Positions 374-64,000 of a stretch of DNA of 64,000 nt are shown here, one piece after another. The notes beneath the pieces were generated by a model. That model saw nothing but the letters and a program-made list of their open reading frames with translations. It was not told the DNA's origin and did no database searches. Position numbers and translations under genes: made by a program. The first letter of the stretch is position 1; each line of letters begins with the position of its first letter. Source of the stretch: a virus; IMG/VR virus record IMGVR_UViG_3300017971_000214, positions 62,261 through 126,260 of that record; one strand, given 5' to 3'.

Positions 374-2515
374 GTGCGGACTCCTTTTTCTCCCCCCGCG
401 GACCCGCTAGCTGCGGCGATGTCGGAAGAGGCTGAGTCCGCCGACACGTTGGCGGACTTACGTCGGTACTCGGTGCTCAAGTCGGTGGCCTACAAGACCG
501 TCGACATGTTCTCCGGCATCACCAAGCGGCGCTTGTGGCTGAAGGACGGCTCCTTCGTGGGGACAGACGGGAACGAGATCAGAGTTCCCTTCTCCGATCC
601 GGACTTCTACCAGCTGGTGGAGCGCCAGCTCGCCCACGTCCTGTTTCGCTCGGACGCCAAGGCCAAGAAGGTGTTCGTCCGGGACTACTCGATGAAGGTG
701 GCGGAGGTAGCCAAGAAGATGGGGGTCGAGCTGAACGCCGGCCACCTTCAGGGAGCCATCGGCCACATCATCACGGTTCTGGAGAAGCGCCGCGTCACCT
801 CCCTGTGGGGGATCTTGTATCCCGGCAGCCACCAGCTACTGAAGGAGATCGACCAGGAGTCCGTCGCAGAGCTGATGAATGAAGCGCACGGGAGCCTACT
901 CGCCTATCTGACCTGTTTGGAAGGCGACGGAGCGTCGGTCGGTGCGGGGGAGATGGATCGATTCCGGCCCTACATCGAGGAAGCCTTCCGGAAGGTGCAC
1001 AAGCGGGGGTTCTCGGCGACGCTTTCGATCTCCAAGTGGCTCGTGATGCAGTTCGTCAACGAGATCATCCGAGAGCTGAAGGACATCCCACCCCCTCCCC
1101 CGCCCATGCCTACGCCCCAAGGGCAGCCCGGCTCTGCTGGAAGCTCCGGCGAGAACGATTCAGAGAGGGAGGAAGGTGACGACTGCGACTGCGACGCCCC
1201 GAAGGCTGGGGGCAGCTCGGAGGGATCCGGAGAAGAAGGCGATGAAGGCTCCCAGGAGCCCTCTGAAGGCGACGATGGGGAGGGGGAGGGCGACGCCCCC
1301 GACGAAGGCGACGAAGGGCAGGAAGGGGCCTCAGAGGGGGAAGAAGACGGGGATGGGGATGCCCCCTGGAACCCGCCGCCTCCGCCGGCTACCGGGGCCG
1401 AGCGTACCCAGGCGCTGAAAGATCTGATCGACAAGCTGGGGAAGGCCCCCGAGCAGGTGAAGGACACAATGCTGGAGTCCAAGTTCACCAAGTCTCGGCA
1501 CTCGCCTAAGGCGCAGGCGCTTGCTTCGCAGGCGTTGAAGGCGGACGTGAACAACCCGGACAAGTTCGAGGACAGCCTGGATGACTCCGAGCAGGAGATG
1601 GAGGACATCCTGGATGCGGCTCTCCGAGCCATGCGCCAGAAGATGCACCACGACGAGTGGTTGCAGAAAGATGCGATGGCGAAGATCAGCTTCGTCGACA
1701 AGGAGGATCAGAAGCACGCCCGGCAGCCCATGAGCTTCGAGGACCAGCAGACGGTCAACCGTCTGCGCGCGATGTTCCACCGCGTGATGGGCAAGCGCAA
1801 GAGCGTGCTGGAGTACGAAGGCACGGAGATCGACGTGAGCGCCTACATCGAGCGCATGACCACAGGGCTTCCTGTGCCGTGCTTTCGATCGGAGGGCACG
1901 GGACGAGGGTTCAAGGCCCTGTTGTTGCTGGACCGATCGAGTTCGATGGGTGGTGCCAAGACGCAGCAGTGCGAGAGGGCGGGTCGAATCATACGGAGGG
2001 CGTTGGAGTTCCCTTTCGTGGAGACCACGGTGTGGGGCTTCAGCTCGAACGAGCCGGGGCAGATCTCGCTCATCCGGCACAACTCACGCGCCGACGTCGA
2101 GCTGCGGGAGGGGGAACGAGGGTCGGGAGGTTCGACGCCGCTGCACGTGGCTGTTCGTCTGGGGGTACGCGAGCTGGAGCGGGGGACCGAGAGCAAGCAG
2201 CTTTTCGTCCTGACCGATGGCTTTCCTACGCACGCTAAGCGCAACGGGAAGATCTTCGCTACCGAGCAGCTGATGCTGTTTGTCCGCGACGAAGTGCGGA
2301 AGGCGCGGAGTAAGGGGATCAACGTCACTTGTGTCTTGGTGGGCGCACCGGACTGGAGAAAGCCCGACCAGATCCACTACGACATGTCCCCAAAGCAACT
2401 TTCCTATATGTTCGGCCCTCGTCGCAACTGGCGTCAGATGGACCCCGAGCGTGTCGGCAGCGATCTAGTTCACCTTGTTGCCACGAGCTTCGTGGACTTT
2501 CTGAAGCGGGGGTAG
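374..2515 (+). CDS. VWA-domain protein (CobT/NorD/CbbO-like partner of the AAA+ ATPase)
   Basis: MIDAS DRSSSM, GSTP, VLTDGFP; long acidic/Pro-rich linker; position after the MoxR-type ATPase. Confidence 0.85.
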   Translation: MRTPFSPPADPLAAAMSEEAESADTLADLRRYSVLKSVAYKTVDMFSGITKRRLWLKDGSFVGTDGNEIRVPFSDPDFYQLVERQLAHVLFRSDAKAKKVFVRDYSMKVAEVAKKMGVELNAGHLQGAIGHIITVLEKRRVTSLWGILYPGSHQLLKEIDQESVAELMNEAHGSLLAYLTCLEGDGASVGAGEMDRFRPYIEEAFRKVHKRGFSATLSISKWLVMQFVNEIIRELKDIPPPPPPMPTPQGQPGSAGSSGENDSEREEGDDCDCDAPKAGGSSEGSGEEGDEGSQEPSEGDDGEGEGDAPDEGDEGQEGASEGEEDGDGDAPWNPPPPPATGAERTQALKDLIDKLGKAPEQVKDTMLESKFTKSRHSPKAQALASQALKADVNNPDKFEDSLDDSEQEMEDILDAALRAMRQKMHHDEWLQKDAMAKISFVDKEDQKHARQPMSFEDQQTVNRLRAMFHRVMGKRKSVLEYEGTEIDVSAYIERMTTGLPVPCFRSEGTGRGFKALLLLDRSSSMGGAKTQQCERAGRIIRRALEFPFVETTVWGFSSNEPGQISLIRHNSRADVELREGERGSGGSTPLHVAVRLGVRELERGTESKQLFVLTDGFPTHAKRNGKIFATEQLMLFVRDEVRKARSKGINVTCVLVGAPDWRKPDQIHYDMSPKQLSYMFGPRRNWRQMDPERVGSDLVHLVATSFVDFLKRG

Positions 2516-7241: not shown

Positions 7242-7952
7242 ATGTTGATCGGAATTTCAGGCATGGCCGGTTCTGGGAAGGACGTGGTCGCCACCGACTT
7301 GGTGGAGGACTTCGGGTTCGTGCAGGTCGCCCTGGCGGACCCGGTGAAGCGCGCAGCTCGGCATGTGTACGACTTCACGGTGGAGCAGTTGTGGGGGCCG
7401 AGCCCCGAGCGCGCGAAGCCTGACACCCGCTACCCGCGCGAGCATGGCCCGTGGACGGACGACGAGAAGTGTCTGTGCTGCGGCGTGGAGTGGGGCAGGC
7501 CGGCGCAGAAGAAGCAGTGCTACCTGACGCCTCGCTTCGCTATCCAGACGCTCGGGACCGAGTGGGGGCGCGGGTGCTACTTGGACACGTGGGTGGACTA
7601 CACCATCCGAACCGCCAACCGGCTGCTCGGTCCCCAAGGGGAGCATCTTCGCTACGATCCTGTGGACGGGATCATCGAAGCACCGTTGCGCGACAGCTGG
7701 AAGGCGAAGGGCGTGGTGGTGTCGGACATCCGGTTCCGCAACGAGTTGGAGGCCATTCGTGCAGCGGATAGCAAGCTGTGGCGAGTGCTGCGCGTCGGCC
7801 ACGAGAAGCCCAAATGGAACCACGAGTCCGAAACGGAGCAGCAGGGTTTCAAAGACGAGGAGTTCGACGTGGTGCTCAAGAACGCGGGCACCTTGGCGGA
7901 CCTACACACGCTGGTGAAGAGGTCGATGATGGCGATCAAGGAGCTAGGATGA
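7242..7952 (+). CDS. deoxynucleoside monophosphate kinase (T4 gp1-like)
   Basis: GMAGSGKD P-loop, TPRFAIQTLGTEWGR, VVSDIRFRNE, HESE. Confidence 0.88.
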   Translation: MLIGISGMAGSGKDVVATDLVEDFGFVQVALADPVKRAARHVYDFTVEQLWGPSPERAKPDTRYPREHGPWTDDEKCLCCGVEWGRPAQKKQCYLTPRFAIQTLGTEWGRGCYLDTWVDYTIRTANRLLGPQGEHLRYDPVDGIIEAPLRDSWKAKGVVVSDIRFRNELEAIRAADSKLWRVLRVGHEKPKWNHESETEQQGFKDEEFDVVLKNAGTLADLHTLVKRSMMAIKELG

Positions 7953-8275
7953 ACTTCAGCGAGTACCAGAAGAAGGCCGGAACGACGGCGCTCTACCCCG
8001 ACCGAGGCAACCACATCGCCTACCCCGCGCTAGGGCTTGCCGGCGAAGCTGGCGAGGTCGCAGAGAAGGTGAAGAAGATCTTGCGAGGAGACCGCGAGTT
8101 GGACGACGAGTACCGCGCGGTGCTGCGCAAAGAACTCGGGGATGTCCTGTGGTACGTGGCGGCGATGTGCCACGAGATCGGAGCCGACATGCAGGACGTC
8201 GCCGAGGAGAACATCGCGAAGCTCGCCTCGCGGAAGGAGCGTGGGGTCATCCGCGGAAGTGGGGATGACCGATGA
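7949..8275 (+). CDS. mazG: MazG-like nucleoside triphosphate pyrophosphohydrolase
   Basis: LGLAGEAGEVAEKVKK, KELGDVLWYVA, GSGDDR. Confidence 0.9.
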   Translation: MNFSEYQKKAGTTALYPDRGNHIAYPALGLAGEAGEVAEKVKKILRGDRELDDEYRAVLRKELGDVLWYVAAMCHEIGADMQDVAEENIAKLASRKERGVIRGSGDDR

Positions 8276-9952: not shown

Positions 9953-10585
9953 ATGAAGGATGGAGGGAGCAACGTGGAGCGGCTGCGCCGCACGCTAGGT
10001 CGATCGGACCTGGAGCGCATGAACATCCCGAAGAAGTTCTGGGGTGCGAAGGTGCAGTATGCCCCCGAGAGCGTGCGCGACGTCGTGCGCCGCTACCTGC
10101 TCAACATCGACAATATGGTGGCCCGCGGGGCCGGCATGTACGTCGTCGGGAAGCCCGGCGTGGGCAAGACCTCTATCGCCGTTATGGTCTGCAAGGAAGC
10201 GCGTTCCTGCGGCTTCACGGCCTACTTCACCCCCATCTGGGAGTTGAGGGAGTGCATCAAGTCCAGAGTCATGTTCGAAGAGAACACGTCGGTTCTGGAC
10301 CGCTGCAAGGAAGTCGATGTTCTGGTGCTCGATGATCTCTGCGCCGATGACGTCAAAGACTACACGTTCGGCGCTCGTCGCATCGAGGAGCTGCTGTCGT
10401 ACCGGAGTTCTCAGAAGCTCGTCACTGCGGTTACGACGCGATTGGATGCGTCGGAGCTGAAGAGCAAATTCGCATCCTTGATTTCATCGACACGTGGGTG
10501 CATGGTGTTCCTCCCCGTCGAAGGCCCAGACCTGAGACGGAAGCAGGACGAAGAGTTGAATAGAGCGGTGTTCGGTTCGGACTAG
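9953..10585 (+). CDS. DnaC/IstB-like AAA+ helicase loader
   Basis: GKPGVGKT Walker A, VLVLDDL Walker B, GPDLR; lies between initiator and DnaB. Confidence 0.85.
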   Translation: MKDGGSNVERLRRTLGRSDLERMNIPKKFWGAKVQYAPESVRDVVRRYLLNIDNMVARGAGMYVVGKPGVGKTSIAVMVCKEARSCGFTAYFTPIWELRECIKSRVMFEENTSVLDRCKEVDVLVLDDLCADDVKDYTFGARRIEELLSYRSSQKLVTAVTTRLDASELKSKFASLISSTRGCMVFLPVEGPDLRRKQDEELNRAVFGSD

Positions 10586-10619: not shown

Positions 10620-13196
10620 GTGGGCGTTGATCTCGACAAAGGACTGGTTGCATCCATACTCCGCGATGGCCCCGACGCTTTGAAGGTCGTGAGGGAGTTC
10701 GGGATTGACGGCAGCCTTTTGGTAGATCCGGGGCGCAAGTTGTTCGACTTCGTCGAGCACTACTTTCGGCAGTATGGCCAGCTCCCCACGCCCGAGCTGC
10801 TGGTATCGAAGTTCGAGAAGGGCTCTCTTCCCGACGTGAAGGATCCAATTGAGTACTTCATCTTGGAGATCCGCGGCAGGAAACTGCAGAACGATCTGAA
10901 GGGCCGCGTCTACCCGTTCATGAAGATGCTCGAAGACGGGCAGAAACCCTTCGAGGCTCTAGACGAACTGGACATTCTGATCCGTGGTCTGCGTCAGGCT
11001 CACGAGATCACACGGGCTCAAGCCGAGAGCGTGCCGAAGCTGTGGCCTGAGGTGATGGATCTCTACGACCGGGTGAAGGGCGGGGAGAAGGGCATTCTCA
11101 CCCCGTGGCCTACGGTGAACAACGAGACGCTAGGCTTCTGGCCTGAAGACCTCGCGCTGTTCGCGGCCCGGCTCGGCATAGGCAAGTGCGTAGCCGAGGA
11201 TACGGAGATCGTAGACCCAGAGACAGGTGTTCCGCATACCATCCACGAGGTGTGTGAGAGAGAAGATCTCAGGAAGGTGTTCACTTGGAGCAAGGAGCGG
11301 GGGGTTCACGCTGCGCGGATAACGGCCAAGGTAGACACGGGAGTAAAACCCTGTCTGCGGTTCCGCTTTGCGTCTGGTCGCGAGGTCACTGTGACGCCGG
11401 AGCACCCTTTTCTGACCTCAGCTGGTTGGGAACCAGCGGCGGACTTGGTTGTGGGGGCTTCTGTGGGCCTTCCGGCTCGGGTGCCGTTCCCCGAGAGCCC
11501 CGAGCAGCTGCTTCCAGAGGCGGTTGATCTCCTCGCACTCCTGTTGGCGGAAGGGAGCTATAGCGGGAAGCACGTTGGGGTCTCTAGCGATGATGACGTA
11601 TTGTTGTCGATCGCTAGTCGAGCGTCTGACGCTTTCGGAGTAGATCTGAAGTACCGCTCGGGAGTCGACTACGATTTCGTCCGGCGGGAGAAGTCAGGCC
11701 CCAACCATGTGAGGACGTTTCTACGCTCTCACGATATGGACGGGAAGAAGGCCGTAGACAAGATTATCCCAGAAGCCGTGTTTGGTCTCCCTTCCGATCA
11801 GCTAGCTCGGTTCCTCGGGCTGTTCTGGATGTGTGACGGGTACGTAGATGGCACCGGTCCTGGCGTGACGCTTGCCTCCGAGAAGATGGTTCAGCAGCTC
11901 CAACATCTTCTCCTCCGTTTTGGGATTCATAGTAGTGTTGATCCAAAGAAGGCTACGTGTGAGGGGCGTGTATTCAACGCGTGGCGTCTCAGGGTGTACG
12001 CTTCCTCTTGGCCTGTGTTCTTGGCCGCTATTCCGCTGTGGGGTAGCAAGCGAGAGCGGTTGGAGGAGTTGGAGAGCCTGGACCGAAATCCTAACATCGG
12101 CTTCCCCAGGGTTTCAGGGGAGTTCAAGGCGCATCTTTTGGGATTGGTACGGAAGAGAGAAAACCATGGGAAGCTGAAACAGGTTGGCGAGCGCCTTGGC
12201 TGGTCCAGCTATTTCATGTTCCGCAGCCTGTTCGGGAAGGGCGACACTTTGTTGCTTCGGCGCTTCGCGGTGTTCTGCGAAGTATTTGGGCTGGAAAGGG
12301 AGTTCGGTTGGTTGTGGGACAGTGAGATTTTCTGGGACTCTGTGGAGTCTATCGAGGACGTCGGCCCTACCAAGATCTATGACCTCACTGTCGAGCCTTC
12401 TGCGTGTTTCTTGGCCAATGACGTGATCGTTCACAACACGTGGGCGGCGGCCATCATCGCTCATCACGCGTGGGCCGTGGGCGGCCACAAGGTGCTGTTC
12501 GGAACGACGGAGATCTCCAAGATTCGCATCGCCATGCGCTTCGCGGCGATCCACTTCAAACTCCCCTACCGTGAGATTCGCCTCGGGAAGCTCGACGCCT
12601 TCAACGAGAAGAAGATGCGCGATGGCATCAAAGACATCATGGATGCCGAGGGGCTGTACGTCATCGGCGGGGACTTCGACTTCCGCGTGGAGTCCTACGA
12701 GAACGCCGTCGAAGAGGTGGCGCCCGAGCTGTCGATCTTGGACGGAGCCTATTTGCTCAAGACGCAGGGGCAAACCAGGACCGAGCGCGCTGCCAACGCC
12801 TTCGACGAGCTGAAGCGAATTTGCAAGCGCACGAAGTGCCCGAGCATCGTCACCATGCAGTTCAACCGCGAGGTGAAGGCAGGCTCCAAGGCCACGGCAG
12901 ACGCCGGCAACATCGCGCTGACCGACGTCGCTGGCTGGAACGCCGATCTCGCCTACGGACTGATCCAGTCCGAGGACATGAAGAAGGACCGCCGTATGAT
13001 CTTCAAGCCCTTGAAGGTCCGTGAAGGCGAGGGCGAGGAGTTCGAGGTCAATTGGGACATCGACAAGGTGAACTTCACCGAGCTGCCGAAGCTGGGTGGC
13101 GGCGGGGGTGGAGCCGATGATGATGACGATCCGTTCGGTGCTGGAGTGAACGGCACGGGCGCCAGCTCGGGCGGTTCGGACGAGGTGCCTTTCTAG
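10620..13196 (+). CDS. dnaB: replicative DnaB-like helicase containing an intein (about 441 aa after splicing)
   Basis: AARLGIGK|TW split Walker A, TTEIS, ILDGAYL, MQFNR, KVREG. Confidence 0.9.
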   Translation: MGVDLDKGLVASILRDGPDALKVVREFGIDGSLLVDPGRKLFDFVEHYFRQYGQLPTPELLVSKFEKGSLPDVKDPIEYFILEIRGRKLQNDLKGRVYPFMKMLEDGQKPFEALDELDILIRGLRQAHEITRAQAESVPKLWPEVMDLYDRVKGGEKGILTPWPTVNNETLGFWPEDLALFAARLGIGKCVAEDTEIVDPETGVPHTIHEVCEREDLRKVFTWSKERGVHAARITAKVDTGVKPCLRFRFASGREVTVTPEHPFLTSAGWEPAADLVVGASVGLPARVPFPESPEQLLPEAVDLLALLLAEGSYSGKHVGVSSDDDVLLSIASRASDAFGVDLKYRSGVDYDFVRREKSGPNHVRTFLRSHDMDGKKAVDKIIPEAVFGLPSDQLARFLGLFWMCDGYVDGTGPGVTLASEKMVQQLQHLLLRFGIHSSVDPKKATCEGRVFNAWRLRVYASSWPVFLAAIPLWGSKRERLEELESLDRNPNIGFPRVSGEFKAHLLGLVRKRENHGKLKQVGERLGWSSYFMFRSLFGKGDTLLLRRFAVFCEVFGLEREFGWLWDSEIFWDSVESIEDVGPTKIYDLTVEPSACFLANDVIVHNTWAAAIIAHHAWAVGGHKVLFGTTEISKIRIAMRFAAIHFKLPYREIRLGKLDAFNEKKMRDGIKDIMDAEGLYVIGGDFDFRVESYENAVEEVAPELSILDGAYLLKTQGQTRTERAANAFDELKRICKRTKCPSIVTMQFNREVKAGSKATADAGNIALTDVAGWNADLAYGLIQSEDMKKDRRMIFKPLKVREGEGEEFEVNWDIDKVNFTELPKLGGGGGGADDDDDPFGAGVNGTGASSGGSDEVPF
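11187..12437 (+). mobile_element. DnaB intein, 417 aa, LAGLIDADG homing endonuclease
   Basis: starts CVAEDTEI, block B VTPEHPF, LLLAEGS and LFWMCDGY, ends VIVHN before T. Confidence 0.92.
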
Positions 13197-29700: not shown

Positions 29701-32700
29701 GCTACGTCAAGGCAGCCGTGGCGGACAAGGCTGCGCAGAACGGCGACTTCGACTTTCTGATGGAGAACGCCTCGAAGATGGGGAAGGCGTCTTTGGGGAA
29801 GGTGAGGGACGGGTTCGAGGTATCTCTGCACACAGGCAAGCCGGGCGATGCCGCCAAGTTCGCGGCGGTCATGGTGGCCCACTACCAGTTCAAGAAGAAC
29901 GGCAAGAAGGCTACGTACTGGAAGGAGATCCAAGACGAGTACGCAGCGGAAGCGGGAGGCGCAGAGGCGGGCGAGGTTCCTTCCAACGCTGACGTCGACA
30001 AGCTGGCGGAGCAGTACTCGGCCGCGCACAAGGCCAACGACTTCGTACAGGCTGCAAACGTCGCCAAGAAGCTGTCGGGAGCCCTAGCGGCCAAGGGCGA
30101 CGCGGCAGGAGCGGAGCTGTGGGGGAAGCTCTCGGACGATGTCGGCAAGAACGTGATCGCCTCGGCTGTTTCCCCTGACGCAGAGGAGTCGAAGAAGATC
30201 GGCGACGAGCTGTTCGATGCCTCTTTGTCCATCGGGAAGGTAACCGAACTGGCAGAGAAGGATCTGTCCGACTCTCAGGTGATGAAGCTGGAAGAGGTAT
30301 TCCAGCAGGCTTTGGAGGACGAGGACCACGGGAAGGCGGCGCAGGTTGCGGAGGCGCTATCTAAGATCCACAAGGACAAGGGCAATGAAGCGACGGCGGA
30401 GAAGTGGGCCGAGTCTGCGGCTTACCACAAGGATCTAGCGGAGAAGAAGCCGGAGGATCCGTACAAGCCCAAGGCCGCCGAGCCGGCCCCCACTCTGGAG
30501 GAGATGGAAGCGAGCGGCGTTCTGGTTCTTCCGTGGAACGCCAAGCCTGCGAAGGGTAAGGAGCACCCGACCGCGGCACAAGCCGCTTCAGCGCAGGGCA
30601 CCTTGGGCCTGGCGGTGGACGAGTTCGTGCATCCCGTGTCCAAGGAGGTGTGGAAGGTCGTGGGGATCATCGAGAATGAGTACATCGACCCCAACGACGG
30701 CATTGTCTACGACAAGAAGACCGGAAAGCCCATCAAGGGCAAGGGCAAGTTCAACATCGTGGAGACGGGGAAGTCTGTCGAAGGGGAGCCCGCAGAAGCC
30801 GCTCCTTCAGGCCCCACGGAAAACTTCCCCATGCCCGAGCCGGCCCCTCCGCCTGCCCCGCCTACGCCAGTTCCGTCTTCGGCTAAGGATGCTGTGGACG
30901 TCATCAAGGCGACGCCGCTACCGAAGGGTGTTCCGAGCCCCGAAGACCTCACGTTGGAGGGGAGCGCCAATCACCTTGGAGGCGCTGGAACGAAGTACAC
31001 GTACACGGACAAGGACGGGAACAAGTGGCTTCACAAGCATGCCTACGCCAAGGGCAGCAGCAGTGCGGCAAAGCCCTACGCCATGATGGCGCAGCAAGTG
31101 TGGTCCCAGGTAGCACTTCGCGCGCGCGGGGAGCATCTACCCATTGCGGCGATGGAGGTATCAGGCCCTGGTGGCAAGAAGGCCCTCGGTACGTTGCAGC
31201 CGCTGGTGGAACGAGACGCCAAGCAGCCTGACCTTCGCGGGGTGGATCCAAAGACGCTGTCCGACGAGGACCGTTCGACCATCGCCAAGGAGCATGTGCT
31301 CGACTGGCTGATGAGTCAGCACGACAGCCACGCGGCCAACTTCATCCGTCGAGCTGAGGATGGGAAGATCTTCTCGGTCGACAAGGAGCAGGGCTTTCGC
31401 TTCTTCGGCTCGGACAAGCTGAGCATCGACTACGCGCCGAACTCCGATCTCTACGGCGAGAACCCGCCCTTCTACAACAAGGTTTGGAGCGGCTGGGTCA
31501 AGGGTGACTACGACATGGACCCGAAGGGACTTCAGGAGACGGTCGAAAAGATCGATGCCATCCCCGTGAAGGAATACATCGATATGATGAAGCCCTACGC
31601 GGAGACCATGTGGCCGGGGAAGCCGGACAAGCAGCTTGAGTTCTTGAAGGCCGCGCGGCGCCGCAAGCTCGACATCCGGAAGGACTTCGAGAGGTTCTTC
31701 ACCGAGCTGTATCGGAAGAAGACCGGAGACGACGGCAATTTCACCTTCGACGCCGGATGGTCCGGAGACAAGCCGAGTGAAGAAGGACCCAAGGTCATCA
31801 AGCACACTGTCTCGGCCAAGGACTACATCAAGGTCTTTGCGTCCGAGCACGACACCACGATGAAGTGGGAGGAGTTCGACGACCCTCAGACAGGTAAGGA
31901 CCCCTCCAAGCTCACGGTGAAGGTAGCCAACAGCGACACCAACGGGCAGAAGAAGCTGGAGAAGATGCTGGCGAAGACGGGGGTGTCCCCTCTGAACACT
32001 ACGCCAGTCAAGGGCGGCTACTACACGATGCTCTTCGTGAACGCCGAGGAGTTCAACAACGCCACGGTGGACTACGAGGAGATCCAGCAGCCGGTCAAGC
32101 CGGGCGACATCGCTCCGACGCCCAAGACCCCCCGTTACTTCCCAGACGACTACGAGCACGCGGTGGCCTCTTCGAACACCGAAGAGATCAAGAACCTTCA
32201 GAACATCTCGACGGGACGTGGAGGGAAGCGCTACGAGTCGGATGGTACAGCGGTGGAGGGAAGTTCTCTGCGGGCACGCCGTTACGAGGACAAGAACGGA
32301 TCGTACTTCGGTTTCCAGTTCAAGCTGCGCCCGGAGATCTGGGAAGCTCTGCGGGACTCGGGGACTGGCGAGCCCTCCACGCTAAAGTTCAAGCAGTCGG
32401 AGTACATCGAGGCAAAGGACGCCTACGTCGAAACGGGCTCGACCATCGACACCGCCAATGCTCGACGTTGGGCGGTGGGATCCTCGGACATCCATTTGGT
32501 TCCTGGCAGTGAGGATAACAAGTCCTCCGACAAGTACTCCTACGTGGGCATGGTTCAGGCGAAGGTTCGCCCCAAGCCAGGACAGTCACCTTACGATGCG
32601 CTGGCGGAGTTGTTGGAGGAGATGAAGCCTGGGTTGGCGAAGGACGTGCTTCGGACCGCGACGCCCGAGGAGAAGGAGATCTGGAAGCTCAGCCAACTCC

Positions 32701-34890: not shown

Positions 34891-36635
34891 CCCAGTACGA
34901 GGTAGTCCGCGACGCTGAGCGCCTAGGCCCCATCGCGAACGAGGTCGACAGCGCTCAGGTCGTAGGGCTAGACATCGAGACGACGCACCTGTCGCCTCTC
35001 CATGGCGATATTCGACTGGTACAGCTGAACACCGGTCAAGGTACGTATGTCGTTGACCTCTTTGAGACCGGAACACTTGGACCGGTAGCGGATGCTCTGG
35101 GGTCCCAGTCGTCCGTCAAGGTGGTCCAGAACGCGAAGTTCGAGCAGAAGTGGTTCCTTCACAAGCACGACGTGGAGCTGTGGCCGCTGTTCGACACGTT
35201 TCGCGCTAGCGCCCTCATTCACAACGGCAAGCACCTGGGGCACAACCTGTATGATCTCTACAACCGAGAGCTGCAGGTTGCGCCCGGTGTTGACGATCAG
35301 GGCGGGTCGGACTGGACCGGCTCCCTGACGCAGAAGCAGCTCGACTACGCTGCGGAGGACGTCACGTACCTCCACCCGCTGCGCGACAGCTTGAAGCCGC
35401 AGCTCGCGAAGGCGGGGTTGAACAAGATCGCCCTGCTGGAGTTCGGGGCCATCCTTCCCGAGTCCCGCATCGAGCTGAACGGTTTTCGCGTAGACAAGGA
35501 TCGATGGGTAGCTCTCGCGCGCAAGAACGAGGAGCGTGTCAAGGAGCTGCGGTTGAAGCTCGACCGCATGCTGCCCCACCCCAAGGGGCTCTTGTTTCTT
35601 CCGGGTATCGAGGTGGGGTTCAACCTCAACTCCCCGATGCAGGTGAAGGAGTCCTTCAAGAAGCTGGGTATCGACCTTCCGGACACTCGTGAGGATACGA
35701 TGGCGATGATCGCCACCAAGCACGAGGCGATCCCTCTATTCATGGAGTACCGCAAGGTCGCCAAGCTGCTGAGTGCCTTCGGTGCGGATTACCTGAAGCA
35801 TCTCGACCCCGAGACGGACCGGGTGCACACCGACTTCTGGCCGCTGACGGGGGCTGGACGGTATGCCTCGCGAGCGCCGAACCTCCAGCAGATTCCTCGG
35901 GTGTTCGAGTACCGGGACTGCTTCCGACCTGGGGATGGGAAGATCATCATCGTCTGTGACTACGGGCAAATCGAGCTGCGCATCGCGGCGCAGATCACCG
36001 GAGATCCGACGCTGCGCGGTATCTACCTGAAGGGTGAGGACGCGCATCGGCGCACCGCGAGCATCGTCTCGGGCGTGCCCATAGACAAGGTGACCAAGGC
36101 GCAGCGCCAGGCCGCGAAGCCCGTGAACTTCGGGCTCATCTACGGACTCGGTGCTGAGAGGTTGGTCGTCTACTCGATGTCGAACTACGGTGTGGCGATC
36201 ACGCTTCGGCAGGCGAAGCAGTTCATCAAGCGGTACTTCGACGGCTACCCACGCATTCGGTCTTGGCAGGACCGAGCACTGCGCGACGGCGAGCGTACCG
36301 CTACGGCTCGCACTCTATGGGGGCGCAGGCGTTTTTTGGATCCTAAAAAGGCCCGCAATGAATTTCTAAACACCCCGATCCAAGGGACTGGGGCAGATGG
36401 CCTGAAGCGCGCGTTGCGCAACGTCTACTTCGGTCTGAAGCAGTTCGAGGGCAGGGCGAAGATGATCCACATGGTGCACGACGAGATCGTAGTCGAGTGT
36501 GACGACGACCCCGAGCTGGTTCCGCAGGTCAAGCAGACCATCGAGCAATGCATGGTGGATGGCATCCAGCCAATGCTTCCTGACGTGCCGGTGGTAGCCG
36601 AAGCAGATATTGGAAGATCGTGGGCAGCGCATTAA
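34887..36635 (+). CDS. polA: family A DNA polymerase (3'-5' exonuclease plus polymerase, no 5' nuclease)
   Basis: DIETT, YAAEDV, PNLQQIPR, DYGQIELR, AKPVNFGLIYG, VHDE. Confidence 0.95.
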   Translation: MTQYEVVRDAERLGPIANEVDSAQVVGLDIETTHLSPLHGDIRLVQLNTGQGTYVVDLFETGTLGPVADALGSQSSVKVVQNAKFEQKWFLHKHDVELWPLFDTFRASALIHNGKHLGHNLYDLYNRELQVAPGVDDQGGSDWTGSLTQKQLDYAAEDVTYLHPLRDSLKPQLAKAGLNKIALLEFGAILPESRIELNGFRVDKDRWVALARKNEERVKELRLKLDRMLPHPKGLLFLPGIEVGFNLNSPMQVKESFKKLGIDLPDTREDTMAMIATKHEAIPLFMEYRKVAKLLSAFGADYLKHLDPETDRVHTDFWPLTGAGRYASRAPNLQQIPRVFEYRDCFRPGDGKIIIVCDYGQIELRIAAQITGDPTLRGIYLKGEDAHRRTASIVSGVPIDKVTKAQRQAAKPVNFGLIYGLGAERLVVYSMSNYGVAITLRQAKQFIKRYFDGYPRIRSWQDRALRDGERTATARTLWGRRRFLDPKKARNEFLNTPIQGTGADGLKRALRNVYFGLKQFEGRAKMIHMVHDEIVVECDDDPELVPQVKQTIEQCMVDGIQPMLPDVPVVAEADIGRSWAAH

Positions 36636-53381: not shown

Positions 53382-54128
53382 ATGACGGCGGAGAATCCAG
53401 CGTTCAAGTCCCAGACCAAGGACAAAGAGGCTCTTGGGAAGTGGATTCTCCGTCGCCTTGGCGCGCCCATCTGGAAGGTCGAGCTGACACAGGAGCACAT
53501 CGACGACGCCATTGAGGACGCGAAGAGATGGTTCGCCGAGAAGAAGGGGCTACTCAAGCTCGGCTCCCTCGATGTGGTGAGTGGGCAGCCTTGCTACCCG
53601 CTTCCCGACGAAGTGGACTTCATCATCGACGTGGCCTTCGAGCAGTCGCCTTCGGACATGGGAAGTATCTTCTCTCCCTTTCTGCTGATGGAGGAAGAGA
53701 TCCCCTACGATGTGTTTGCGGCTCCGCAGAGCCTCGGTCTCTACTCGACCTACGTTCAGTCCCTATCGTACATCGAGATGGCGCAGCGTATCACCGGGTC
53801 GGAGATGGAGTGGTGGCAGCAGAACCGTCATCTCTACGTTGCCCCCACCCCGGCGAACAGCAAGAAGATCATCTACGTGTACAAGACCTCCGTGTTTGCT
53901 ATCGACCAGCTGTCGGAGCGCGACCACAACTTCATCAAGAAGTACGCGCTGGCGTGCGCCAAGCGGGACCTCGGTCGCATCCGTTCCAAGTACGATGGGT
54001 TTCAGGGGGCGCAGGGGCAGCAGTCGATGGATGGATCTGTGCTTCTAGACGAGGCACGAGACGCCATCGAGAAGTTGGATGAAGAGATCATCCTCGCTGG
54101 CTATCCAATGCTTTTTCTCACTGGCTGA
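53382..54128 (+). CDS. neck/head-completion protein, T4 gp13-like
   Basis: WILRRLGAPIWKVELTQEHIDDAIEDA, KKYALA.AK..LGRIRSKY. Confidence 0.85.
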   Translation: MTAENPAFKSQTKDKEALGKWILRRLGAPIWKVELTQEHIDDAIEDAKRWFAEKKGLLKLGSLDVVSGQPCYPLPDEVDFIIDVAFEQSPSDMGSIFSPFLLMEEEIPYDVFAAPQSLGLYSTYVQSLSYIEMAQRITGSEMEWWQQNRHLYVAPTPANSKKIIYVYKTSVFAIDQLSERDHNFIKKYALACAKRDLGRIRSKYDGFQGAQGQQSMDGSVLLDEARDAIEKLDEEIILAGYPMLFLTG

Positions 54129-57766: not shown

Positions 57767-60700
57767 GTGGCTGAGTTTCTAAGCCCAGGCGTATTCATCG
57801 AAGAGGTTCCCTCTTCGACTCAGGTCGTTCAGGCCGTCTCCACATCCAACATGGGGATCGTGGGGTTCACTTCGAAGGGTCCGACAGACGAAGCGACTTT
57901 GGTCACTTCGGTCGATCAGTTCTACAAGAAGTTCGGTGAACTCTCCGCCGAGACTTTCACCGGCCACTGCGTCCTGGCGTTCTTCGCCAACGGCGGTCGG
58001 CGATGCTTCGTCGTTCGTGTCATGCCGAACGACTCGACGGAGGCGGACGTCGACATCACGAGCCGGGTGTACGGTCAGCAGATCAACACCGGTGACGGCT
58101 CGACGACCAACTTCACCGACTCCTCTCCGGGGACGCCGATCGATCTCAAGACCACGATCATCGGCTACAACGGCCCCACGGGCGTCAACCCCGGCATCAT
58201 CATCAAGTGGCGAGCAGCCGGCACGGCGGTCACGACGGAGAACCTGCGCAACCGCGATGACTCTGGCGACGTCACCCAGGTGGGCACCCCCACTCCGGAG
58301 CAGAGCTACGAGTTCCGCGTCGACCCCTCGTCGCTGCCAGCTCTCGCCGAAGGCGACTACAAGCAGTACGTCATCGACCCCTCCGCGAACTTCGTGCTGA
58401 ACTTCGATCCGGACGGCGCGACTCCTTCGACCATCACCGTGGCCACCCCGACGTCGGGGACTGTGGGAACCACGACGACGGCAGCAGGCTCTGTGTGCTC
58501 GTTCGACTTCGCCACAGGCAAGGGTTCGGTGCGCTTCGCCGGCTCCGAGGCGATCGTGGCTGGTGGTCACGGCACCACGCTGACCGCGGACTACACGCCG
58601 ACCACCACCACGTATGCCATCCGTGACGATGGTTCGGGCAACCTAGTCGACTCTGTTGCGGGGTCGATCGACAGCGGTGGGACGAACACCATCGACTACA
58701 ACACGGGTGAGTACGACTTCACGACGGCTACCGCCTACCTCCCCCATGACGACGCCCCCATCCTGACGTACTACGACTACTCGGCGTGGGACATGGACCC
58801 CGTGTCGAACGGCGTGTGGGCCAACAACGTCCAGATCGAGGTCCGCGGCAACGCCGACTACTTCGACGCTGCGACGCAGTCCTACTCGCGGCACGACGTG
58901 TTCGTGCGGGAGTACAACAGCGCCTCTGGGTCCTACGACATCGTCGAGTCCTACGACTCGCTCGACTTCACCGACTCGTCGTCGACCGAGTACTTCCCGG
59001 ATGTGGTCAACGAGCTGTCGGACCTCGTGTCCGTCGAGACCCCTGGTGGCGACGTCTACCCCGGTTCCTTGGACGGCTTCCTGTCCACGGTGATCATGGG
59101 CGGAGGAGACGAGGACAACACGACGGGCAACTCGACGTTCGCTTCGGCGGCTGACCAGATCTTGCCGACGTTCTTGGGCAACTACGAGGTTGGCGCGCGC
59201 TCCGTGAACATCACGGGCACGGCGGCAGGCACTTCGGCGTCGGGCACGATCGTATCTGTCGCTCAGGCCAACTACGTGGATGGCGAGCAGTTCGTTCTCA
59301 ACGACGGTGTGAACCCTCCGGTGACTTTCTGGATCGACCAGACCGGAACGTACACTCCGGGCGGTGGCTACGACGCCACCAACATCCACGTGGATGTCTC
59401 GGGCGATACCTCTGCCACCGACACGGCAGACACCATCGTGGCGGCCATCAACGGCGTGTCCGCGCTGCTCATCTACGCCGACAACACCGGAGGCACCTCG
59501 GCCACGGTCGACCTGATCCACCTGCAGCAGCTCGCCGCAGGCAATCAGACGATCACCGATACCGTGGCGGACGTGGGATTCACCACCACCGGTATGGCTG
59601 GTGGCGCGGATGCAGCGGCCATCGCCATCTCCGACGATGGCAACGGCAACCTGACAGGCTCTGTCGACCCGACCTACGCCACGTCGGTAACGGTTGGCGG
59701 GGTGACGCTCGACCCGAACACCGTGGACTACGCTACGGGCTACGTGAACTTCAAGACCGTGTCGCCCATTCAGGGTGGGTCGGTTCTCACGGCGGCCTAC
59801 TACGTCGAGCCGGAGGAGAGCACGCACATCGAGCAGTTCGGCGACACCACCAAGCAGTTCACCGACTCGCTCGCAGTCGTGCACTACGCGGCGGGCACGG
59901 ACGGCACCTTCACCGGGTCCACCTACACGCGAGGCGAGTTCACCAACCCGACGTTGCAGGCTTCCAAGCGAGGCGTGTACGCGTTCGACGAGGTGGACGA
60001 GCTGTTGCAGGTCGTCATCCCCGACTTCGCCGGGGACGTGACGGTGACCGGAGACCTTCTCGACTACGCAGCTTCCCGAGCGAACCTGCCATCGGGTGGC
60101 GACCGCTTCATCATCCTGACGGTCCCGCTGGGCTCCGACCCGCAGGAAGCGGTGGACTGGTTCCGCTTCGACCTCGGGCGCTTCTCCAAGTGGGCGGCCC
60201 TTTACTGGCCGTGGATCAACGTGGCCGACCCCCTCGCCAACGGTCGCACGCTGACGATGCCCCCGATGGGTCACATCGCCGGCATCTACGCCCGGACCGA
60301 CAACAACAAGAGCGTGGGCAAGGCACCGGCCGGAACGGTCGACGGTGCGCTCAACTGGCTCACGGGGCTGGAGTACGTCGCGACTCAGGGCGAGCGCGAC
60401 TTCGTGTACCCCAACAAGATCAACCCGCTCATCTCGTCGCCGCAGACGGGGCTCGCTGTGTGGGGTGCTCGCACCATCGCGCAGGAGAGCGAGTGGCGGT
60501 ACGTGCATGCCCGTCGCCTCTTCATGTTCATGGAGAAGTCGATCTACAACAGCACGGCCTGGATTGTGTTCGAGAACAACGGCGAAGCGCTGTGGGCTCG
60601 AATCAAGGGCCAGATTGACGGCTTCATGAACGGGCTTTTCAACTCGGGCTTGTTCTTCGGGAACAGCCCACAGGAAGCGTACTTCGTCATCGTGGACTCC

Positions 60701-60820
60701 TCGAACAACGACGCGTCTTCCATCGAGGCCGGACAGGTCATCATCGACGTTGGGGCCGCTCCGAACCGCCCGGCAGAGTTCGTGCGGTTCAGGTTCCAGC
60801 AAGCCACGATCGCTGCCTGA
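57767..60820 (+). CDS. contractile tail sheath protein (gp18-like) with large insertion domains
   Basis: LSPGVFIEE, FFANGG, ALYWPW, KAPAG, VWGARTI, VFENN, P.RPAEFV.FRF. Confidence 0.95.
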   Translation: MAEFLSPGVFIEEVPSSTQVVQAVSTSNMGIVGFTSKGPTDEATLVTSVDQFYKKFGELSAETFTGHCVLAFFANGGRRCFVVRVMPNDSTEADVDITSRVYGQQINTGDGSTTNFTDSSPGTPIDLKTTIIGYNGPTGVNPGIIIKWRAAGTAVTTENLRNRDDSGDVTQVGTPTPEQSYEFRVDPSSLPALAEGDYKQYVIDPSANFVLNFDPDGATPSTITVATPTSGTVGTTTTAAGSVCSFDFATGKGSVRFAGSEAIVAGGHGTTLTADYTPTTTTYAIRDDGSGNLVDSVAGSIDSGGTNTIDYNTGEYDFTTATAYLPHDDAPILTYYDYSAWDMDPVSNGVWANNVQIEVRGNADYFDAATQSYSRHDVFVREYNSASGSYDIVESYDSLDFTDSSSTEYFPDVVNELSDLVSVETPGGDVYPGSLDGFLSTVIMGGGDEDNTTGNSTFASAADQILPTFLGNYEVGARSVNITGTAAGTSASGTIVSVAQANYVDGEQFVLNDGVNPPVTFWIDQTGTYTPGGGYDATNIHVDVSGDTSATDTADTIVAAINGVSALLIYADNTGGTSATVDLIHLQQLAAGNQTITDTVADVGFTTTGMAGGADAAAIAISDDGNGNLTGSVDPTYATSVTVGGVTLDPNTVDYATGYVNFKTVSPIQGGSVLTAAYYVEPEESTHIEQFGDTTKQFTDSLAVVHYAAGTDGTFTGSTYTRGEFTNPTLQASKRGVYAFDEVDELLQVVIPDFAGDVTVTGDLLDYAASRANLPSGGDRFIILTVPLGSDPQEAVDWFRFDLGRFSKWAALYWPWINVADPLANGRTLTMPPMGHIAGIYARTDNNKSVGKAPAGTVDGALNWLTGLEYVATQGERDFVYPNKINPLISSPQTGLAVWGARTIAQESEWRYVHARRLFMFMEKSIYNSTAWIVFENNGEALWARIKGQIDGFMNGLFNSGLFFGNSPQEAYFVIVDSSNNDASSIEAGQVIIDVGAAPNRPAEFVRFRFQQATIAA

Positions 60821-61967: not shown

Positions 61968-62531
61968 ATGGCCCGTCCCGCAAGCACTGACTTCATGCAC
62001 GCGATGCGCTTCCACGTCGTGGTTCTCGGCACGAACGCCGAGGAGTACCTGACGGGCGGAGCCGCTTACGCTGACCCGAACATGGCGATCCCGCAAGCGG
62101 GCTTCACCACGTGTTCGATCCCCGAGCTGTCGATCGAGTCGGTGGAGTACAAGGAAGGCACCTTCATCTACCCCCGTAAGTACCCCGGCAACCCGGCGGT
62201 GAGCGACTGCTCCTTCGCGCGAGGCGTGACTCGGGACGACAGCTCGTTCTGGCAGTGGGCGAAGAACTCCGTGGAGGGTTCGGGTGGCGGTGTCGAGTAT
62301 CGCTTGGACATGGACATCAAGCACTACCACCGCGACCAGATCCTCCCGAACGCGCAGGGCCAGATCGCCAACGTCGAGAATGTCGTTCCCGGACGGACCT
62401 ACCGCATCTACGAGTGCTTCCCCATCCGGTGCAAGCCGGCCGGAGACCTCGATGCGACTTCGTCCGAGATCTCCATCCAGGAGATGGACGTCGCCGTCGA
62501 GCGCATCGACGCCACGAACGGCAACTTCTAG
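61968..62531 (+). CDS. tail tube protein, T4 gp19-like
   Basis: AGF..CS.PE, EYKEG, KYPG, RGV, DLDATSSEISI. Confidence 0.92.
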   Translation: MARPASTDFMHAMRFHVVVLGTNAEEYLTGGAAYADPNMAIPQAGFTTCSIPELSIESVEYKEGTFIYPRKYPGNPAVSDCSFARGVTRDDSSFWQWAKNSVEGSGGGVEYRLDMDIKHYHRDQILPNAQGQIANVENVVPGRTYRIYECFPIRCKPAGDLDATSSEISIQEMDVAVERIDATNGNF

Positions 62532-62536
62532 GCGGC

Positions 62537-62785
62537 GTGAAGCTGCCCATCATCGAGCCGTTGCAAGGGCCAGTCAACGGCTCGAATCTCCTCTTCCGCA
62601 CTAGCGTCGACTACGTGCCCGGCTCCACCCGCGTGTTTCTCAACGGGGTGGTCTGGACACAGCACCTGGAGAACGGCTGGGACGAGCTGGGAGGCCGGAC
62701 CCTCCGGATGAAAGAGGCTCCCCGAGCGGAGCCTCCCCCCAGCAACCCGGACGTGCTCTCGGTCTACTACCTTCCTTTGGTCTGA
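62537..62785 (+). CDS. small putative virion protein
   Basis: G.VNGSN..F, YVPGSTRVFLNG motif; GTG start. Confidence 0.55.
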   Translation: MKLPIIEPLQGPVNGSNLLFRTSVDYVPGSTRVFLNGVVWTQHLENGWDELGGRTLRMKEAPRAEPPPSNPDVLSVYYLPLV

Positions 62786-63150
62786 TGGCGGCGTTCGACC
62801 CCCACCCGGACACCTACCTCCCTCGTAATCCGTGGGAGACCGGGACCGTCTGGTACACGAATGTGACCCCCCAGACGCTCTCCCTAGACTGTTGGGCTAC
62901 GGGTTCGAACTACCCTCCCCCGCGGCCGAGCCCGCAGGAGCCCCAGGAGAGCCCCCGAGCTGCCGAGCTGCGGAGACATAGGGCGGCGTCAAGACGGGCC
63001 GTTCTGGAGGCCCTGGCGGCCCGCAGAGGGCTTCGTGACGATCCCTCCCCTCTGGTGCCCCTTCCGGCGAGGAAGGGCTTCAGCGGGCGCCCAGCGGCCC
63101 GCAAACGGGTCTGCGCCGGCTCCAGCCGCTACCGCGTTCTGGTCAACTGA
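62785..63150 (+). CDS. hypothetical protein
   Basis: TGATG coupling; low-complexity Arg/Pro-rich tail. Confidence 0.4.
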   Translation: MAAFDPHPDTYLPRNPWETGTVWYTNVTPQTLSLDCWATGSNYPPPRPSPQEPQESPRAAELRRHRAASRRAVLEALAARRGLRDDPSPLVPLPARKGFSGRPAARKRVCAGSSRYRVLVN

Positions 63151-63197
63151 GCTGTTGACAGATCGGTCGTGGATGAAGACCCTGGACGGTCTGATCC

Positions 63198-63551
63198 ATG
63201 AACCTCCGTGTCCTATCCACCACGCCGCCGTTCGGCACCCCGCGCATGGGCTTCAGGCTGTGCTGGGAGGGGTGCCCCTGCCAGGAGACGGGGCAGTGGA
63301 TGTGGCCCTCCGAGGTCTGCGGCGACTCGCTTCACCCCGACGTCGCGTCCTTCATCGCCGTCCACGTCATCGAGCGATGGGCAAAAATGGGAGTGCGGTT
63401 TGTAGACCTATCCCTTCGGAAGCCCAAGCCTTCTCTCCACGGCGCCCCCCTGCTCGAAAGATTCGTGGTTGCACGAGCCCTCACTCATGCGATACGTAGG
63501 GGTGAGAGGTACGACCGACACGAGGTTGAGGCGTCAGAGATTTTCGCTTGA
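63198..63551 (+). CDS. hypothetical protein
   Basis: fills the gap up to the promoter. Confidence 0.45.
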   Translation: MNLRVLSTTPPFGTPRMGFRLCWEGCPCQETGQWMWPSEVCGDSLHPDVASFIAVHVIERWAKMGVRFVDLSLRKPKPSLHGAPLLERFVVARALTHAIRRGERYDRHEVEASEIFA

Positions 63552-63575
63552 CACTTTTTCCCTATGTGATAAGGT
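63548..63575 (+). promoter_or_regulatory. sigma70-type promoter of the tRNA region
   Basis: TTGACA-N16-TAAGGT with TGn extension. Confidence 0.65.
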
Positions 63576-63587
63576 CGTGATCTAGCC

Positions 63588-63782
63588 ATGACGTTCGTAC
63601 ACAGGCATACCACAGCAGCTCGCGCGGCGCGGAAAGCGTCGGCGCTGTGGTGTGCTCTGTTTTCAGGCATGGGCTATCGCGGACAAGGCACGCCAGAAGC
63701 TATCCAGCTCCAGCCGACCTCCCTCGATAGCACCCTGAATGCCATCGTGAAGCCCTTGGAGGTCGGCGACACAGGCGGTTAG
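63588..63782 (+). CDS. putative 64-aa leader peptide of an attenuator
   Basis: starts 13 nt after the -10, is heavily base-paired, ends TAG TAG on the antiterminator strand. Confidence 0.5.
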   Translation: MTFVHRHTTAARAARKASALWCALFSGMGYRGQGTPEAIQLQPTSLDSTLNAIVKPLEVGDTGG

Positions 63783-63798
63783 TAGGAACGGGAACTCC

Positions 63799-63845
63799 AA
63801 CGATCCGAAAGCCGCCTGGGAAACCTGGTGGCTTTCGTCGTTTCT
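63799..63845 (+). terminator. attenuator terminator hairpin upstream of the tRNA
   Basis: CGAAAGCCGCC-TGGGAAACCT-GGTGGCTTTCG then TCGTTTCT. Confidence 0.7.
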
Positions 63846-63940
63846 GGGTTTGAGATTCGAGGAGACAAGACGATGCATGACGGAAGGAAGGGCAGGAAGG
63901 GCTATCCCGCAGCGCACGCGCGCACCCGAACCCATCTACG

Positions 63941-64000
63941 GGGGTGCTGGCACGCTGGAGAGTCCACCTGATTGTAAATCAGACGCCTTAGGCTATGGCG
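63941..64000 (+). tRNA. tRNA-Tyr(GTA), 3' end cut off by the window edge
   Basis: acceptor 5' strand GGGGTGC, D-loop TGG, anticodon arm CTGA-TTGTAAA-TCAG, long variable arm GCC-TTA-GGC as in class II tRNAs. Confidence 0.75.

Follow-up and report, generated by a model that had tools for sequence, protein, structure and literature searches.

A promoter, a 64-codon reading frame and a terminator ahead of a probable tRNA-Tyr gene in a large uncultured phage: an ordinary small-gene cassette or, possibly, a new kind of switch

The leader peptides of classical ribosome-mediated attenuators have roughly 14-32 codons. Term-seq has reportedly revealed antibiotic-sensing attenuators with leader open reading frames (ORFs), e.g. 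those of vmlR, msrD and the tylosin-induced yxjB. Classical phage morons are known from temperate phages, where the prophage expresses them. The regulation of phage transfer RNAs (tRNAs) has, to our knowledge, barely been studied. Phage tRNAs rescue infection from tRNA-cutting defences, one of which degrades tRNA-Tyr, and the tRNA-Tyr of a T5-like phage under a strong promoter overcomes retron-Eco7 PtuAB (PMC11555353). No report of an attenuator ahead of a phage tRNA was found in the open-access literature searched. Here, we describe an element at the end of a 64,000-nucleotide (nt) stretch of viral DNA (positions 62,261 to 126,260 of IMG/VR record IMGVR_UViG_3300017971_000214; hereafter the window), in which a promoter, a 64-codon ORF and an intrinsic terminator precede the 5' part of a probable tRNA-Tyr gene. 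The ORF is two to four times longer than the classical leader peptides. The window is the final 64 kb of one linear 126,260-bp contig with a G+C content of 61.7%, which is recorded as a linear virus sequence and has a CheckV completeness estimate of 68%. The parts of the element, in window coordinates, are as follows.

63548-63575, + strand: sigma70-type promoter with an extended -10 (TTGACA, 16-nt spacer, TAAGGT)
63588-63782, + strand: 64-codon ORF, ending ...GDTGG-UAG
63598-63661, + strand: hairpin 1, about 27 pairs, inside codons 4-25, then UUUU
63662-63767, + strand: mutually exclusive helix set (TTCAGG/CCTGAA, GCTATCG/CGATAGC, GCTATCCAG/CTCGATAGC and GCCGACCTCC/GGAGGTCGGC)
63772-63818, + strand: candidate antiterminator, in which CAGGCGGUU (63772-80) pairs with AGCCGCCUG (63810-18)
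63800-63853, + strand: intrinsic terminator with core stem 63806-63837, GAAA loop and tail UCGUUUCUGGGUUU
63854-63939, + strand: spacer, with no sigma70-like promoter
63940-64000, + strand: 5' part of a probable tRNA-Tyr(GUA) gene with a long variable arm, 61 nt, cut by the contig end

The anatomy of the cassette (promoter, ORF, terminator and tRNA 5' part) is real, and the sequence elements described in a first-pass annotation of the window are all present where it placed them. That annotation took the whole as a leader-peptide attenuator that would switch on the tRNA when translation fails. The element may be an ordinary small-gene cassette, or it may be a new kind of switch for a phage tRNA. 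Our preferred reading, to which we assign a probability of roughly 0.35, is a plain, moron-like cassette for a structured small gene, from which leaky read-through feeds a promoterless tRNA. It has its own promoter, one small gene and its own terminator, and it lies within a late-gene region. The promoter, of a host-sigma70-type phage family, would fire at about 63582, and the resulting RNA of roughly 260 nt would be translated from its near-5'-terminal AUG to give a 64-residue peptide, with the heavy secondary structure serving the mRNA through stability, start-codon masking or pausing. Most transcripts would stop at the hairpin 63806-63837, and a fraction would read through, owing to the imperfect U tail, to become the precursor of the tRNA-Tyr at 63940. 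That the last codons can pair with the terminator's 5' arm would be incidental.

The promoter consists of TTGACA at 63548-53, TG at 63567-68 (the end of the spacer reads TGA) and TAAGGT at 63570-75, and the stop codon of the upstream gene falls within its -35 hexamer. The promoter of the first-pass annotation is borne out by a pattern search of the 126-kb contig, in which the promoter belongs to a family with 13 sites on the + strand versus one on the - strand. The family has the form TTGACAATC...TATGTGA-TAnnnT, with TTGACAATC and TATGTGA before the -10 in most members. Its + strand sites are as follows.

Contig 82, 2305, 3777, 12383, 36276, 39462, 47228 and 58905, + strand: promoter family sites
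Window 14613, 17161, 33947, 46566 and 63548, + strand: promoter family sites

A simple consensus scan left both the 63548 promoter and the 63806 terminator unflagged, picking out only a site on the - strand and hairpin 1, the latter as terminator-like; the promoter was missed because its -10 matches TATAAT at only three of six positions. Judging from the position of the -10, the transcription start is expected at about 63581-63585. At four of the 13 family promoters, the ATG of a long ORF (207, 59, 273 and 301 residues) lies 6-9 nt after the -10, indicating that the phage uses leaderless starts. The ATG at 63588 lies 12 nt after the -10 with no Shine-Dalgarno sequence, and is thus near-leaderless.

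The 64-codon ORF named in the first-pass annotation (63588-63782) has three in-frame homologues (P0001-P0003), which were found in a search of 5.8 billion proteins and are 81-91% identical (BLASTP) with 100% query cover. Their indels are in-frame and restricted to residues 36-50. A protein search finds intact frames only, so that this conservation of the frame is partly ascertainment; a frameshifted homologue of 35-112 residues, which the search would have listed, was not among the matches. A diverged copy of the element, seen in runs X1 and X2, differs by one codon before 63773 yet stays in frame and ends at the same stop. In 2.1% of 20,000 shuffles, and likewise in 2.1% of 2,521 genome windows, there is an ATG-initiated ORF of at least 55 codons whose start lies within the first 20 nt and whose stop lies ahead of the terminator. 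An ORF that fits its transcript and is kept in frame argues for translation. As the first-pass annotation remarked, the ORF contains no run of any single residue. It has a single Tyr codon (UAU, 63675-77), and one Tyr in 64 residues is the chance expectation.

Pfam and PHROGs gave no family for the protein, tblastn of the ORF against phages gave no match, and a profile search of 1.84 billion representatives returned only its own cluster and one low-complexity repeat protein (P0004, 944 residues, with 14 weakly matching stretches), which was treated as an artefact of low complexity. The AlphaFold2 model has one helix at residues 3-29 and is otherwise disordered, with a predicted local distance difference test score (pLDDT) of 57; structural neighbours in the Atlas are meaningless at a pLDDT of 0.55. 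A ubiquitin- or ThiS-like protein, considered for its C-terminal GG, was rejected because there is no Pfam match and the model is one helix plus disorder, and a type I toxin was rejected because the hydrophobic span in the ORF is too short.

The terminator arms (63806-63819/63824-63837) are 14 nt long and 86% complementary. The core hairpin has an energy of -22.4 kcal/mol, and the hairpin extended to 63800-63841 has one of -25.6 kcal/mol. The terminator proposed in the first-pass annotation at 63806-63837 stands as a 14-pair hairpin; its tail, described there as T-rich, is only moderately rich in U, and the generic scan was silent on it. The tail UCGUUUCUGGGUUU resembles that of a terminator-like hairpin, UUCGUCGUU, at contig position 53660. 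Outside the 126-kb contig, the hairpin is seen again on at least two contigs of runs X1 and X2. One of these copies is the diverged one mentioned above, which has similar depth and in which a related ORF end (one codon shorter, with the same stop) is followed by a related 3' untranslated stretch and a related terminator, and in one further contig the hairpin stands behind unrelated upstream sequence. Such reuse in other contexts is expected of a generic module, and the small ORF plus terminator looks like a family of reusable modules. The 126-kb contig contains no copy; the copies come from the third of the genome that is missing or from phages that co-occur, and they are probably the reason why the contig breaks at this place.

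Contigs from two related phages, X3 and X4, also cover the element. X3 has no differences over 63528-63712, 63728-63816 and 63856-63949, and has 15 changes within the terminator hairpin, which by our reading is still hairpin-like. In X4, a T>C change at 63829 turns a G-U pair of the terminator stem into G-C.

Positions 63940-64000 very probably represent a tRNA-Tyr(GUA) gene, as judged from the alignment with positions 1-61 of E. coli tyrT/tyrV, which is gap-free, with 33 identities in 61 positions and every arm in register. The acceptor 5' strand (GGGGGTG), a 3-bp D stem with a GG loop, and the anticodon loop UUGUAAA, with U33-GUA-A37 in the anticodon arm, can be assigned, and the variable arm, with a 3-bp stem (GCC/GGC) and a 3-nt loop, is built as in E. 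coli. The weak points are a C at position 8, the D stem pairs G-C, G-C and C-U, and a C-A atop the anticodon stem. The loose contig ends of X3 and X4 have the same acceptor strand, with differing letters in the D arm or anticodon stem and good pairing. X4 has a perfect GGGC/GCCC D stem, its printed end stopping before the anticodon loop, and X3 has another D arm and another 5' strand of the anticodon stem with the same GTA loop. ARAGORN reported no tRNA gene in the window, in the contig or across a join of the contig end to its start, and Infernal with RF00005 gave no match at E<=10 for the contig, while in 63900-64000 its sole match had 11 bits and lay on the minus strand. Silence of the tRNA finders is expected of a gene cut at position 61. 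The tRNA-Tyr of the first-pass annotation is supported in its first 61 nt, which align arm for arm with E. coli, and is left without a call by either program.

Between the terminator and the tRNA, no promoter was recognized. The first-pass annotation had named a separate tRNA promoter after the terminator as a finding that would speak against it; a scan covering the sigma70 type only, at >=7/12 matches, found no such site between 63549 and 63975. Taking all models together, we lean towards the view that transcription from the 63548 promoter includes the tRNA. X3 has the identical spacer, and in X4 the spacer has indels and five substitutions. It contains a 9-nt tandem duplication at 63885-63902 (AGGAAGGGC twice); X4 lacks 9 nt here and probably has a single AGGAAGGGC copy. 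It also contains GAGGAG, 8 nt and an ATG (63859-63875), at the head of a 32-codon frame (63859-63971) that ends in the tRNA anticodon stem and is probably coincidental.

The putative transcript 63582-63850 folds at -119.7 kcal/mol (z = -4.31), and none of 200 shuffles is as stable. Hairpin 1 (z -4.06) and the terminator (z -3.2) account for the excess; the 3' half of the ORF (63660-63782) is not special by energy, with a z of -0.33, and 195-nt windows across the genome have a mean z of -0.48 with a standard deviation of 1.27. Among the first 100 nt behind the 13 family promoters, only those at 63548 are strongly structured (z -3.54, versus -2.57 to +1.74 for the others). Inverted repeats of at least 9 nt, with at most one mismatch and at most 60 nt apart, number nine in the transcript, versus 1.04 +/- 1.14 in shuffles (one of 300 reaches nine) and 1.35 +/- 1.31 in 84 genome windows, where the maximum is six and none reaches nine. 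RNA far more structured than that of an ordinary gene, with mutually exclusive helices, argues for a function at the RNA level.

The arms of hairpin 1 are GCATACCACAGC and GCTGTGGTGTGC (63605-16/63644-55), and the hairpin could act as an RNA-polymerase pause or a 5' stabilizer. Inside the ORF, the helices listed in the first-pass annotation were all recovered, including the one with GCCGACCTCC (63713-22) and GGAGGTCGGC (63758-67), which is 100% complementary over 10 bp; the arms of GCTATCG.../...CGATAGC lie at 63673-82/63722-31. Judging from the codons, two pairs of the 10-bp helix would be broken by the changes P43T, T44A and V59G in P0003, and TTCAGG/CCTGAA would be broken by L50P in P0001. 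The 5' end of the transcript including the AUG (63583-90) can pair with CAUGGGCUA at 63668-77, just past hairpin 1. This segment holds a second in-frame AUG (Met28), and the pairing could sequester the start codon. An Rfam scan, proposed in the first-pass annotation as a check, yielded no family, only sub-threshold matches (blv_FSE, mir-995, sR35 and a minus-strand tRNA).

Several observations weigh against the plain cassette. An ordinary small gene does not predict such an excess of inverted repeats, and, unless it is regulated, a terminator is oddly placed between a strong promoter and a tRNA with no promoter of its own. The peptide has no family, no confident fold and, among the 1.84 billion representatives, no relative outside its own cluster. 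Its codon score is 0.12 per codon, versus 0.59 +/- 0.36 for real genes and 0.22 for the antisense ORF at this place; off frame the score is -0.56 and -0.53, a comparison made ambiguous by the overlapping antisense ORF. There is no Shine-Dalgarno sequence, and the 12-nt gap after the -10 exceeds that of the clear leaderless genes. The antiterminator is nearly isoenergetic with the terminator (local hairpins of -22.2 versus -22.4 to -25.6 kcal/mol) and lies exactly where a terminating ribosome would mask it.

The last of these points leads to the alternative that fares best, a ribosome-mediated attenuator in which coupled transcription and translation of the 64-codon leader would control the terminator before the tRNA-Tyr. 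We regard it as tentative and, on balance, unlikely, though not much less probable than the plain cassette. Hairpin 1 and its U run may act as a synchronizing pause. A ribosome at the last codons or the stop would cover 63772-80, so that the terminator forms and no tRNA is made. If the ribosome were absent, or stalled before about codon 58, CAGGCGGUU would pair first and transcription would read through into the tRNA-Tyr. In a sharper form, the single invariant Tyr codon at 63675-77 would report a shortage of usable tRNA-Tyr. Every part that it needs is there, correctly ordered and spaced, and this is the sole model that uses all the observations, including the extreme density of inverted repeats, the ORF that fits its transcript and the lack of a sigma70-like promoter from the terminator to the tRNA.

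The pairing at its centre, noted in the first-pass annotation, was found again as nine pairs (63772-80/63810-18). CAGGCGGUU consists of the last codons and the U of the stop codon, and AGCCGCCUG lies in the 5' arm of the terminator; the core CAGGCGG/CCGCCTG (63772-78/63812-18) grows to nine pairs through one G-U and one A-U. Shuffling the 218 nt upstream produces a 9-bp run of this kind in 6.6% of 2000 cases, whereas shuffling the last 60 nt does so in 1.3%. Forcing the antiterminator costs 0.7 kcal/mol (-115.5 versus -116.2 kcal/mol for the terminator fold), with an ensemble split of 0.55/0.45. When folded as nascent RNA with its 3' end at 63819-63830, the transcript has both the antiterminator and the 10-bp helix in its minimum-energy structure, whereas at full length it has the terminator. 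With RNA extending to 63823, the probability of the antiterminator is 0.97-0.98 when the RNA is naked or has a ribosome at codons 10, 30, 40, 50 or 55, is 0.75 with a ribosome at codon 58, and falls to 0 with a ribosome at codon 60 or the stop. The diverged copy keeps nine pairs by change on both strands, with a U before 63773 and an A after 63817 (C-G to U-A).

These results are, however, matched by others that tell against the attenuator. In full-length RNA with ribosome masks at equilibrium, the terminator wins at 0.92-0.98, except with the ribosome at codon 50, so the switch would rest wholly on kinetics, as the trp attenuator does. The snapshot of nascent RNA does not discriminate: in 12 other hairpins of the contig, the 5' arms are paired at 0.42-0.76 before the 3' arm exists, versus 0.62 here, the 12 having been chosen by eye as clean ones from 39 candidates, which makes the comparison partly circular. 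Among 11 other hairpin-plus-T candidates with a folding energy of -22 kcal/mol or below, eight form with a probability of at least 0.84 and three with one of 0.57 or less, so that three of the 11 are as contested in their context as the 63806 terminator. As pre-pairing of the 5' arm is generic in this G+C-rich contig, an antiterminator arising by chance is credible. In X3, a change at 63817 and one gained base reduce the antiterminator to seven of its nine pairs, while the other strand, 63772-80, is unchanged. The two pairs presumably lost from the 10-bp helix in P0003, the terminator hairpin found elsewhere behind different upstream sequence, the lack of a Shine-Dalgarno sequence and of a control-codon run, the length of the leader at 64 codons, and the absence of any such device from the open-access literature searched count on the same side. 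The trp-type logic invoked in the first-pass annotation thus survives in its mutually exclusive helix and in the masking by a ribosome in silico, and is weakened by the generic pre-pairing and by the pairs lost in X3.

Taken further, a translation-sensing attenuator would gate the phage tRNA and, in the boldest form, would respond to a stall at the single UAU when the host tRNA-Tyr has been destroyed by a defence nuclease; we consider this doubtful. The phage would then make its own tRNA-Tyr only when needed. A phage tRNA-Tyr does matter against a defence that degrades tRNA-Tyr (PMC11555353), and a purpose against anticodon-nuclease defences at this locus is pure inference.

Next comes a non-coding structured RNA, in which the roughly 260-nt transcript would be the product and the ORF would remain untranslated. 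It could be a stable small RNA, or a cis-acting leader responding to something other than ribosomes. The fold (z -4.31), the extreme density of inverted repeats, the 5' hairpin unique among the 13 promoter-proximal regions, and a start codon that the 63583-90/63668-77 pairing could sequester all agree with such an RNA, as do the missing Shine-Dalgarno sequence, the lack of a protein family or a confident fold and the ambiguous codon score. So does X3, whose lack of differences across most of the element compares with 18 differences in 150 nt of the tail gene (62549-62698); its divergence near the element is, however, low anyway, at 1 in 169 and 4 in 332. An ORF spanning the transcript is, moreover, found in only 2.1% of shuffles, and the frame is kept through indels in three of three homologues and in the diverged copy, although ascertainment contributes to this. 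Apart from a spurious mir-995 match, Rfam gave no family at E<=10, and the changes L20R, A13E and A19S would, from their codons, break pairs of hairpin 1 with no visible compensation. A purely non-coding RNA is rather improbable in our view.

Separate units, with the tRNA driven by a phage-specific non-sigma70 promoter hidden in 63846-63939, are very unlikely: middle or late promoter motifs of their own are common in large lytic phages and the spacer is identical in X3, but it shares no motif with other intergenic regions beyond purine-rich 13-21-mers, it has indels and five substitutions in X4, and it contains no sigma70-like site.

The genes upstream place the cassette in the tail region of a phage. 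The two that could be assigned are as follows.

57767-60820, same strand, upstream: tail sheath gene (PF17482, 1e-08; phrog_23, 1.5e-51)
61968-62531, same strand, upstream: tail tube gene (PF06841, 7.2e-17)

The tail tube gene is followed by two small ORFs of 121 and 117 residues with no Pfam or PHROG family. The source is most likely a large uncultured myovirus with the cassette placed after its tail sheath and tube genes, and at the CheckV estimate of 68% for 126,260 bases the full genome would have roughly 185 kb. The contig has no terminal repeat, and joining its end to its start creates no tRNA that ARAGORN recognizes; from the linear contig, the lack of a terminal repeat and the CheckV value, the element lies at an assembly break and not at a genome end. 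The contig start has small ORFs and yielded no notable Rfam match. No close cultured relative was found: 508 phage records match the sheath, all at <60% identity and none covering 80%. A blastn search of the phage collection found no relative DNA. Exact or gapped patterns of the element, the 117-residue neighbour protein and an alignment of the ORF gave no match among viral contigs, and the ORF alignment and one exact pattern gave none among genome contigs. With the tail tube protein as query, the viral and metagenome collections yielded one contig only, 40% identical, with another gene order and no tRNA.

Assembly contigs from runs X1 and X2 cover 63878-64000 and extend about 2,736 bases further; record 8 of X1 has 2,859 nt, of which 2737-2859 match window 63878-64000. 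The assembly graph forks at 63787-63816 and at 63878-63907, and a lower-depth path (a 583-nt record) omits the 61 nt between 63816 and 63878. By its length, the omitting path may hold about 520 other bases, which suggests a strain variant with an extra insert.

The contig also shows a period-4 rhythm of G in nine tracts, each of 10-28 consecutive tetramers beginning with G.

Contig 596-683, 7935-7974, 10158-10233, 10709-10820, 31445-31492, 32097-32136 and 35289-35332: G-tetramer tracts
Window 2149-2200 and 12290-12329: G-tetramer tracts

A (GNNN) tract in the spacer before the tRNA has only six tetramers, below the countable number. Two candidates upstream of the promoter were likewise rejected. 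The Rfam match to blv_FSE, a retroviral frameshift hairpin, at 63083-63109 (18.9 bits, E 3.5) is attributed to chance because there is neither a slippery site nor an open -1 frame, and a -1 frameshift 'chaperone' pair is discarded because frame 0 has stops at 63156, 63174 and 63192.

If the terminator is conditional, the element would be the first leader-ORF attenuator before a tRNA gene, and would amount to feedback, with the supply of a substrate of translation controlled by the translation apparatus itself. If the cassette is plain, it still illustrates clearly how an uncultured phage combines a strong promoter family with near-leaderless starts and a terminator module that can be reused. 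With about 400 nt, the element is small enough for direct reporter work.

Among the known systems, the trp, his and phe attenuators share with this locus a promoter and leader ORF, a hairpin-plus-U pause candidate, an intrinsic terminator ahead of the controlled gene, and a 5' strand of the antiterminator that a ribosome finishing the ORF would mask (here in silico). They differ in that the present ORF has no cognate control-codon run and no Shine-Dalgarno sequence, the setting is a phage, the controlled gene is a tRNA and not a biosynthetic operon, and untranslated RNA is predicted to read through instead of 'super-attenuating'. As control codons are a defining feature of trp-type attenuators and fail here, the element is not filed among them. 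The attenuators of the vmlR, msrD and yxjB type are alike as general sensors of ribosome stalling, in which a ribosome held up on a short upstream ORF releases an antiterminator and the downstream gene is turned on; they differ in that they serve resistance or ribosome-protection genes on bacterial chromosomes or plasmids, have short leaders with a Shine-Dalgarno sequence, and are not known to control a tRNA.

Phage morons resemble the cassette in their autonomous sigma70 promoter, one small gene and factor-independent terminator in the tail-gene region, whereas here the RNA is unusually structured and a promoterless tRNA follows. At the E. coli K-12 tyrT-tyrV-rttR/tpr locus, tRNA-Tyr genes likewise have the small RNA rttR and the tiny ORF of a 'protamine-like protein', tpr, as neighbours, but both lie downstream of the tRNAs and there is no similarity outside the tRNA. 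In T5-like phages (PMC11555353), a phage tRNA-Tyr(GUA) is likewise found behind a strong phage promoter, which drives it directly, whereas here 260 nt of ORF/RNA and a terminator intervene. The T5-like tRNA-Tyr is the nearest biological precedent for the cargo of this cassette.

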